A stretch of 64,000 nt of DNA from Escherichia coli (GTDB lineage: Bacteria; Pseudomonadota; Gammaproteobacteria; Enterobacterales; Enterobacteriaceae): NCBI RefSeq assembly GCF_024502345.1, contig NZ_JALDNN010000001.1; one strand, written 5' to 3'. The notes beneath the pieces are model-generated. The model was not told the origin of the DNA and searched no databases. It saw only the letters and a program-made list of their open reading frames with translations. Both the position numbers and the translations under genes were made by a program. Positions 38,565 to 40,481 of the stretch are shown here, piece by piece (positions within the stretch are counted from its first letter, which is position 1; the number at the start of each line of letters is the position of its first letter).

Positions 38565-40481
38565 TCAAATGTAATCGTTTTTTTGCGGCACTGCATCAAC
38601 AAAATTCGTCTCCGCTTTGAAGGCAACATAGAGCTTCAATATTTCTCGCGTAACCCCAGCGTCCAGCGCCATAACGGCATCAGAAAGGCTGTCAAAAAGT
38701 ACGCGGATATGTGTACCTTCTTCAAGTTGCGGGAAATCAGCAAGGACATATCCCGTTCCTCGTTCAACGACGGTGCGATAACGAGCCAACACGTCTTCCG
38801 AAAGTTTGGGGATCGCCCAGACGTCTATTGCCAGCTCGGCCAGACGTTCCGCTCTCTTTTGTATCGCTGCACGATCCCATATTTCACATTGCCCTAACCC
38901 CGTGTTCAGGCGTAATGGACTTTCCTTAAAGCCACCTTTTATATCTCGTTTCTTCGCAAATGGACGGTCGCTGTAGCTTGAGTTATAGCCAGTTAACGTT
39001 AAATTACCCAACGTATGGAGCCACTTTTTATGGATTCGCTTCCATTCCGGACCAAGGTCATCGCGCCACTTCGCCGATAAATTAGGGTTCTGCGGCATGA
39101 TATGTTCAATCGTATATTCGTCTACGCAGACCCGTTCTTTACGACCGTGGTTTTCAAATCTGCGTAGCCAATAGCTGCGATTACGGAAGTTGTAGAGGTC
39201 GCGAGTTTTCAGTTCACGTTGAAATTCATCATCATCCGGGAAACGACGGTAGGAAGGCAGTTCCAGCAAATGCGCCGCAATGCTCTCCAGATAACGCTCT
39301 TTATCCAGCACTTTGTAAAACGTGGCGAAGGTTTTGGTAAATGAGTTGGTGGGAATGGCACAGACTGCGCGCCGGAAGATATACGACTCAATTAAACGCG
39401 TGGCACTTAAAAAATCCGCGGCAGAAAGGATCCCCTGTTTATAGTCGTGATAAAGCACCAACAGGAACGGCCATGCAGCATCAACTTTCAGCTGGCGTAG
39501 ATCCTGAAACGCCATCTTTAAGGTTTTATCCTTTTCGCTATCCAGCGCCATCGCACAAAAATAGTCAGCAAACGTACGAATATCCGCAACCAGCGCCTCC
39601 ATCCCGCTATCCATCACTCCTGGTTTTCGCGCATAGCGTTTAAAGGCTTCATAGACATCACCAATTCGCGGAATCTCACCTGTTTTTACCGTCAGGTAAT
39701 TACGCATAAAACTGTCGAAATAGTCAGTGTATCCCTTCTGACCAAATGCCAGCTCCATGGGCCGCCAGTAATCGTCGTACAGTTGGCTTTGATGTTCTGG
39801 CTCCAGCCCCATCAGAACATAGTTGCGTACCAGATCCGCCTGACTCAGCGCTTTTCCTGTTGAGTTCATGCTTTCAAAGATTAGTTGCGGATTATCCTGA
39901 CCGCGATTCAAGGCGACATCCACAATAAGCAGTTTGGAAAGTCCCTGACATAACGCGGTGAAATTGCCGTGGAGTTTGCCTATTTGCTCATGGAAAAACT
40001 CAAAATTCTCTTTCACGCGTAGAGAGCAATTTTCTGCCAGCGGTTTTTGTCTAATCAATGCCAGCAGGCTTTCTCTGTCCGTTTGCGTAAGCAGTAACTT
40101 AAAACCACGCTCGCCCGATTCATACGGATTGAGCAGATAATAGTTTCGTAATTTCATGGCGGAGAAACCATCCATCACCTCGTCATCACCAAGATGTCTG
40201 GACAACGCTTCCAGCAATAACATCGCCGTTGTTAGGCGTTGCTGACCGTCAATCACCAGTAAGGGAGAGATCCCCGAAACCTGATATAGGCCCTGTTCGA
40301 TATACACCACCGAGCCGATAAAATGCGCCGGGATATCATCACGCTGCCCGGCACGTATTACATCGTCCCAGAGCTGGCGGCACTGTTCCTCTGACCATGA
40401 ATAAGTACGCTGATAAATGGGAATAACGAATTGCTGAGAGCGTTTAAGAAAATCGAGTAATCGGGCTTCGGTGGCTTTCAT
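38565..40481 (-). CDS. GmrSD-family type IV (modification-dependent) restriction endonuclease, DUF262 + DUF1524
   Basis: 638-aa ORF; N-terminal DUF262 with IPIYQRTYSW and VIDGQQRLTT (DGQQR motif); C-terminal His-Me finger (EYTIEHIMPQ ... HTLGNLTL). Confidence 0.7.
   Translation of the reverse strand: MKATEARLLDFLKRSQQFVIPIYQRTYSWSEEQCRQLWDDVIRAGQRDDIPAHFIGSVVYIEQGLYQVSGISPLLVIDGQQRLTTAMLLLEALSRHLGDDEVMDGFSAMKLRNYYLLNPYESGERGFKLLLTQTDRESLLALIRQKPLAENCSLRVKENFEFFHEQIGKLHGNFTALCQGLSKLLIVDVALNRGQDNPQLIFESMNSTGKALSQADLVRNYVLMGLEPEHQSQLYDDYWRPMELAFGQKGYTDYFDSFMRNYLTVKTGEIPRIGDVYEAFKRYARKPGVMDSGMEALVADIRTFADYFCAMALDSEKDKTLKMAFQDLRQLKVDAAWPFLLVLYHDYKQGILSAADFLSATRLIESYIFRRAVCAIPTNSFTKTFATFYKVLDKERYLESIAAHLLELPSYRRFPDDDEFQRELKTRDLYNFRNRSYWLRRFENHGRKERVCVDEYTIEHIMPQNPNLSAKWRDDLGPEWKRIHKKWLHTLGNLTLTGYNSSYSDRPFAKKRDIKGGFKESPLRLNTGLGQCEIWDRAAIQKRAERLAELAIDVWAIPKLSEDVLARYRTVVERGTGYVLADFPQLEEGTHIRVLFDSLSDAVMALDAGVTREILKLYVAFKAETNFVDAVPQKNDYI

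Follow-up and report, generated by a model that had tools for sequence, protein, structure and literature searches.

A 64,000-nucleotide (nt) stretch of Escherichia coli DNA from contig NZ_JALDNN010000001.1 (assembly GCF_024502345.1; the whole stretch is called the window below) contains the yjiA-yjiS interval, in which the genes are arranged in the order yjiA, brnA with a remnant of brnT, a Fic-like gene, a GmrSD-family gene, a divergent hsdM-hsdS-hsdR operon of a type I restriction-modification (R-M) system, a low-GC membrane open reading frame (ORF), yjiS and yjiR. The GmrSD-family gene, which is the subject of this analysis, lies within the immigration control region (ICR). It appears in the window as a truncated ORF of 638 amino acids (aa) at positions 38565–40481, which holds both GmrSD domains, a helical linker and the first half of a third domain, DUF5655. 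This ORF and all parts of the gene named below are on the minus strand.

Both GmrSD domains were found by Pfam in the 638-aa ORF: PF03235 (GmrSD_N, formerly DUF262), a ParB-like nucleoside triphosphatase (NTPase) domain, at residues 9–222 (nt 39816–40457; E = 4.1e-34), and PF07510 (GmrSD_C, formerly DUF1524), a His-Me nuclease domain, at residues 414–549 (nt 38835–39242; E = 2.5e-27). The fusion of these two domains, which the original prediction had read from the sequence, thus stood up to a search with hidden Markov models. The nucleotide-hydrolysis motif of DUF262, DGQQR, is at residues 78–82 (nt 40236–40250), and the motif of the His-Me finger nuclease, EHIMP, at residues 459–463 (nt 39093–39107), with N493 (within nt 39000–39008) and N500 (nt 38982–38984) as its partner residues. 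In an alignment of 63 family members (33–83% identity), D78, G79, Q80, Q81, R82, P463 and N493 are invariant and E459, H460, Q464 and N500 nearly so, which confirms that the DGQQR and His-Me residues have been retained. The DGQQR of the window protein also lines up with that of both DndI and SspE. Among the PADLOC models, the one of a subfamily named 'Orf5' matches the protein with E = 6.6e-217, while NCBIfam gave no match to it.

The gene is broken close to its 3' end. A run of A on the coding strand (38578–38584) consists of seven residues (A7) in the window and of eight (A8) in the nearest E. coli relative, which is 99.8% identical over 2.4 kb; a second E. coli allele (96.9% identity) also has one extra base at this site and is in frame, and each of the two is annotated with a single coding sequence (CDS) of 2100 nt. 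The 638-aa ORF comprises the first 634 codons of the 699-codon gene, followed by codons in the shifted frame. The detached 3' part, at 38383–38568, lies in the -1 frame and holds the other half of DUF5655; counted from TTG, it forms a tail ORF of 61 aa, which overlaps the 638-aa ORF and matches the C-terminal end of the PADLOC family PDC-S18. When one A is restored, both ORFs fuse into a protein of 699 aa, and the Pfam match to DUF5655, partial in the truncated ORF (residues 593–635, E = 0.07), becomes complete (residues 593–692, E = 8.5e-12). As the best 120 database homologues are all 676–731 aa long and all have the three domains, the small ORF is the detached tail of the GmrSD-family gene and not a separate gene of 57 aa, as had been thought.

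The same gene has been inactivated independently in other E. coli strains: in O157:H7 it is frameshifted, and in N3 and cM8a it is interrupted by IS4-family insertions, which together with the window frameshift points to repeated loss of the gene in this species. The change from A8 to A7 ends the frame at codon 638 and splits DUF5655; the window allele is damaged and possibly inactive.

Modelled alone (predicted local distance difference test, pLDDT, 94.5), DUF5655 shows a YdhG/YjbR-type fold in structure comparison, the matches being a YdhG-like protein (10.2), DR2400 (9.2), YjbR (8.9) and the C-terminal domain of T4 MotA (6.8), whose structure was solved in a DNA complex. The domain also forms the C-terminal part of the PADLOC defence candidate PDC-S18 (E = 1e-23), and is plausibly a DNA-contacting or sensor module. 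The half carried by the detached tail corresponds to strands 4–5 and a long C-terminal helix. The break falls after the third strand, and therefore the 638-aa product is without two strands and the long terminal helix; the remaining half domain may destabilise the protein. Since natural two-domain relatives of 550–590 aa without DUF5655 exist, the catalytic core could in principle work without this domain. A literature search yielded nothing on GmrSD together with DUF5655, and DUF5655 alone only in one unrelated paper.

The repaired 699-aa protein was modelled with AlphaFold2 (pLDDT 89.9). In Foldseek the model ranked DndI (E = 5.9e-16) before SspE (E = 1.3e-13) and BrxU (E = 4.2e-5), and DndI is also the best match among solved structures by sequence (E = 7.8e-12). 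Thus the window protein is a member of the GmrSD family by its domains, motifs and fold. DndI (PDB 9JFL) shares with it a DUF262 NTPase with DGQQR and a DUF1524 HNH nuclease. It is a dimeric nickase gated by nucleoside triphosphate (NTP), in which DGQQR is needed for defence; it cuts DNA that is without the host phosphorothioate mark, and the self mark releases it (PMC11662687). In contrast to the window protein, to which it is 18% identical, DndI is partnered with dndBCDE phosphorothioation and has no DUF5655; no dnd or ssp genes were found in the annotated 26 kb of the nearest relative or among the window ORFs at 33–50 kb. The claim that the enzyme is modification-dependent by virtue of its architecture does not follow, because DndI has the same two domains and yet cuts unmarked DNA; SspE, too, shows that this architecture does not by itself imply such dependence.

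BrxU (PDB 7P9K), which we adopted as the functional model, is a GmrSD-family type IV enzyme that complements the BREX system by cutting modified DNA (PMC8565348). It is only 14% identical to the window protein, belongs to another host system and lacks DUF5655. HEC-06 is another GmrSD-like single protein with DGQQR and EHxxP that is embedded in another restriction-type system; it is antiviral and loses its activity when the DGQQR and EH residues are mutated (bioRxiv 10.1101/2024.01.29.577857). The HEC-06 profile PDLC04155 aligns its positions 12–560 of 562 with window residues 8–557 (E = 2.6e-60). Overall, however, the HEC-06 profiles (558–569 positions) match window residues 2–557 only, leaving the DUF5655 region outside; HEC-06 is embedded in Hma systems and not in type I systems, and 'Orf5' fits the window protein far better. 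The founding enzymes with DUF262 and DUF1524, Eco94GmrSD and EcoCT596 GmrSD, are NTP-stimulated and cut DNA with hydroxymethylcytosine (hmC) or glucosyl-hmC (PMC4437046). Unlike the window gene they are prophage-borne. The best match of the PADLOC type IV model to the window protein is N-terminal only (residues 8–94, E = 2.2e-25), and at such a distance the substrate preference of the founding enzymes cannot be transferred.

The genomic context was looked up for seven homologues with 68–83% identity, from Oceanimonas, Kiritimatiella, Litorilinea, a Binatia genome, Salinivibrio, Citrobacter and an enterobacterium. All seven, representing four phyla, are directly beside or inside an hsdM, hsdS, hsdR locus, although the place of the gene is not fixed and may be the M-S or the S-R junction, after R, divergent from M or convergent with R. 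Outside the enterobacteria (five loci) the gene shares a strand with hsd, and a neighbouring gene is overlapped by its start or stop; at the enterobacterial loci examined it is divergent from or convergent with hsd, and in the window it is divergent and 284 nt away from hsdM. Across phyla the GmrSD-family protein is 68–72% identical, whereas the linked HsdM and HsdR proteins share only 27–39% and 21–41%, respectively. As the protein is conserved while HsdM and HsdR diverge, the subfamily pairs with different type I families and does not co-evolve with a single one. A single co-evolving module of the gene and its hsd neighbours was rejected, since there is no co-divergence across phyla and such a pattern was seen only within Enterobacteriaceae. 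The subfamily is tightly conserved, horizontally mobile and almost always found adjoining or inside type I R-M operons.

Associations of this kind have been described. Among the neighbours of the GmrSD family, type I domains show the strongest enrichment, with RloF cited as a case (Machnicka et al. 2015, PMC4619093); diverged GmrSD homologues occur in the E. coli ICR (He et al. 2015, PMC4437046); GmrSD is present in 12% of enterobacterial ICRs (2025 review, PMC12707154); and GmrSD-like genes are embedded in Hma and type I systems (2024 preprint, Payne et al., bioRxiv 10.1101/2024.01.29.577857). The kind of gene found here is thus already catalogued in the ICR, and publications have already reported GmrSD homologues next to type I systems. 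The type I-linked homologues, RloF among them, are DUF262 genes between or beside hsd genes, as here (PMC4619093), but RloF is a Campylobacter gene defined by its position, and its comparison with the window gene is one of position.

Of 5,426 complete E. coli genomes, 1,520 contain a homologue according to a distant DNA search; in 1,402 genomes (26% of all) the match spans at least 80% of the gene, and about 1,370 of those records have an allele that is about 72% identical at the DNA level. The UTI89 copy is intact and encodes a protein of 697 aa that shares 75% identity with the repaired window protein. The copy is located past a K-12-type hsdRMS-symE cluster, at the place of mcrBC in K-12, and Mrr is still present beside yjiA. 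In O157:H7 the copy is again beyond symE, adjoins an EcoAI-family type I system and has a genuine frameshift near residue 267; the mrr position there is occupied by a different DUF262/HNH gene, which is likewise broken. The island locus of O157:H7 strain 1130 contains two broken GmrSD-type genes (3741–5392 and 12001–14093). In E. coli the subfamily adjoins three different type I families.

K-12 carries mrr, a modification-dependent restriction gene of the same variable island, directly between yjiA and hsdR. A tblastn search of the window with K-12 proteins identified yjiA, yjiX and btsT at 99–100% identity and none of Mrr, McrB, McrC and SymE (best E = 0.09 or worse). For Mrr the best E value in the whole window was 0.61, so that the reported lack of an Mrr-like ORF was confirmed, and Mrr has no detectable similarity to the window protein, to which it is unrelated. 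The location between yjiA and hsd given in the original prediction is correct as regards the ICR and the K-12 position of mrr. The gene is nevertheless not adjacent to yjiA, from which it is separated by brnA, the brnT remnant and the Fic-like gene, and the hsd genes are not those of K-12: beyond the mrr position alone, the whole yjiA-yjiS cassette, hsd included, is unlike K-12.

The type I R-M operon of the window (40766–47645, plus strand) consists of hsdM (40766–43111), hsdS (43111–44385) and hsdR (44382–47645) in the order M-S-R, opposite in strand to the GmrSD-family gene. It is of a non-EcoKI type, HsdM and HsdR being 27% and 23% identical to their EcoKI counterparts by tblastn. Its HsdM is unusually long (781 aa), and its HsdR does not fit the EcoAI-family naming seen in O157:H7. 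The system scored below the cut-off of the specific type I models of NCBIfam; only families IA, IB and ID are reported in this island (2025 review, PMC12707154), and by elimination it is possibly of type ID. The intergenic region from which the GmrSD-family gene and hsdM diverge (40482–40765, 284 nt) is AT-rich, with about 40% GC, and presumably holds the promoters of both flanking genes; a consensus scan detected no promoter-like site within this region. Two TGATCAT repeats (40667–40688) are present there, 5 nt apart and each with a GATC Dam site, which, from their sequence, could be an operator or a methylation-sensitive site.

On the other side, the Fic-like gene (37605–38339, minus strand) is 43 nt downstream of the GmrSD-family gene and on the same strand, and co-transcription of the two is possible. 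Its product matches Pfam Fic weakly (E = 0.0025), has the motif QFFFDGNKRTSR with Gln in place of the usual catalytic His and a Doc-like NKR, and matches phrog_11900, a phage family of unknown function, with E = 2.4e-42. Fic was rejected as a conserved partner, since it is adjacent only in Escherichia and in strain FGI57; the Fic near the Binatia locus is an unrelated one. The next feature (37164–37515, minus strand) comprises the brnA antitoxin gene (CDS 37167–37466) and the last 20 codons of brnT (37456–37515). As the rest of the toxin gene is deleted, brnA is an orphan antitoxin. The deletion is common to the window and the nearest relative, while the brnT-brnA pair is intact in a more distant E. 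coli allele and in Citrobacter.

Directly 3' of hsdR there is a predicted membrane ORF of 237 aa (47711–48424, plus strand) with 26% GC, compared with 50% in the window; in relatives it is annotated as hypothetical, and none of its family matches is convincing. The btsT-yjiX spacer (35830–35959) exceeds that of K-12 and of the nearest relative by about 80 nt, is similar in length to that of UTI89, and contains GC-rich inverted repeats resembling repetitive extragenic palindromic (REP) elements.

Taken together, we assign a probability of about 0.75 to the reading that the ORF is the first 91% of a frameshift-broken gene whose unbroken form encodes a GmrSD-family enzyme with three domains and 699 aa, which is a type I companion and probably attacks modified DNA. 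By homology, the intact enzyme would be an NTP-driven DNA endonuclease that defends against phage, with NTP hydrolysis in DUF262 gating the cutting by the His-Me domain; such gating can fairly be expected, because DndI, SspE and BrxU are all NTP-gated His-Me nucleases. Its role would be complementary to that of the type I system, in that it would most probably attack DNA which escapes type I restriction through its base modifications. In this strain the subfamily gene and the non-EcoKI hsdMSR operon together fill the yjiA-yjiS ICR. The complementary type IV model is favoured because conservation of the protein does not depend on its hsd partner and three type I families adjoin it in E. coli. 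Several points weigh against it. DndI, the nearest solved relative, attacks unmarked DNA, so that modification dependence is no more than putative, and the literature searched for the subfamily yields neither biochemical nor phage data. The linkage appears weaker in a homologue with 49% identity, where an HsdM-like methyltransferase gene is about 1.1 kb away, and a two-domain relative adjoins a different methyltransferase-helicase restriction system. The frameshift could be an isolated sequencing error, and the truncated product might keep some activity, as the natural two-domain relatives suggest.

As regards the frameshift, the explanation by an assembly or sequencing error, with an intact 699-aa gene in the organism, is supported by the fact that a single base in a homopolymer is the commonest type of error and by the absence of the A7 version from 114 close E. 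coli alleles examined with short queries spanning the site, all of which are in frame. However, an alignment of 26.4 kb to the nearest relative contains only three indels in total, of which the A7 site is the sole one in the cassette; the remaining two, single-base changes that offset each other at a distance of about 50 bp (~28,553 and ~28,605), are outside the cassette and in a repeated 20-base motif. A systematic homopolymer error was rejected on these grounds, and as the window shows none, a real mutation is likelier than an artefact. The independent inactivations in O157:H7, N3 and cM8a argue in the same direction, and we regard an error as unlikely, though not negligible. Programmed -1 frameshifting or slippage yielding the full-length product was considered as well, since A_AAA_AAC, read in the zero frame, has the canonical X_XXY_YYZ form of a slippery heptamer and the ORF that follows lies in the -1 frame. 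This explanation was rejected, because relatives that are in frame make recoding needless and the downstream region is without structure: shuffled versions of its 78 nt fold just as well (z = +1.17; true of 181 of 200 shuffles). A run of seven or eight A is also short for a phase-variation switch, and either form of this explanation is very improbable.

As regards function, the enzyme might instead resemble DndI in its mode of action and hit DNA that lacks the mark of the linked type I methyltransferase, forming a second restriction arm rather than a type IV activity; sensing of the self mark would stimulate NTP hydrolysis and release the enzyme from host DNA. DndI, the closest solved relative by sequence and fold, operates in that way, and it agrees with this that in several phyla the gene is placed within type I operons in which stop and start codons overlap. 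The high identity of the protein compared with that of HsdM, together with differing HsdS specificities, argues against the reading of a cognate mark. Against this mechanism there are also the sparseness of type I sites and the three different type I families adjoining the subfamily in E. coli; published embedded GmrSD-like cases have, moreover, been interpreted as complementary type IV activity. We therefore consider this mechanism improbable. Another explanation, that of the original prediction, is that an intact GmrSD-type type IV enzyme replaces Mrr like for like and heads a co-regulated operon of four genes (GmrSD, small ORF, Fic and BrnA). It is consistent with the GmrSD domains and motifs, the absence of Mrr from the window, the location of K-12 mrr beside yjiA, the shared strand and the 43-nt gap to Fic with no terminator-like site between. 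Yet the gene carries a frameshift, and what was taken for a small ORF is its own tail; the string of four genes is not a conserved unit, Fic and BrnA not being conserved neighbours, and brnT is deleted. The coexistence with Mrr in UTI89 and the site beyond symE in UTI89 and O157:H7 show that the gene is not an alternative to Mrr; the constant partner of the subfamily is type I R-M, and the exchange of the entire cassette relative to K-12 weakens the idea of a swap further. We find this explanation improbable. The subfamily could also be a dedicated accessory of type I R-M and not an autonomous neighbour, reading the methylation state set by HsdM in the way DndI reads phosphorothioate, or serving as a guard, with DUF5655 as its sensor, that is triggered once phage anti-restriction has disabled the type I enzyme. 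In that case, to which we likewise attach a low probability, hopping among unrelated type I families at ~70% identity across phyla would reflect a generic type I interface.

In summary, our results do not overturn current understanding but correct the reading of this locus: the GmrSD-family gene is damaged, the small ORF is no gene, and variation concerns the restriction cassette as a whole, not one slot in it. Apparently no member of the exact subfamily has been tested, and it offers a cheap and well-defined target for phage-defence assays. A possibly useful wider point is DUF5655 itself, with its DNA-binding-like fold and its recurrence in the defence candidate PDC-S18.

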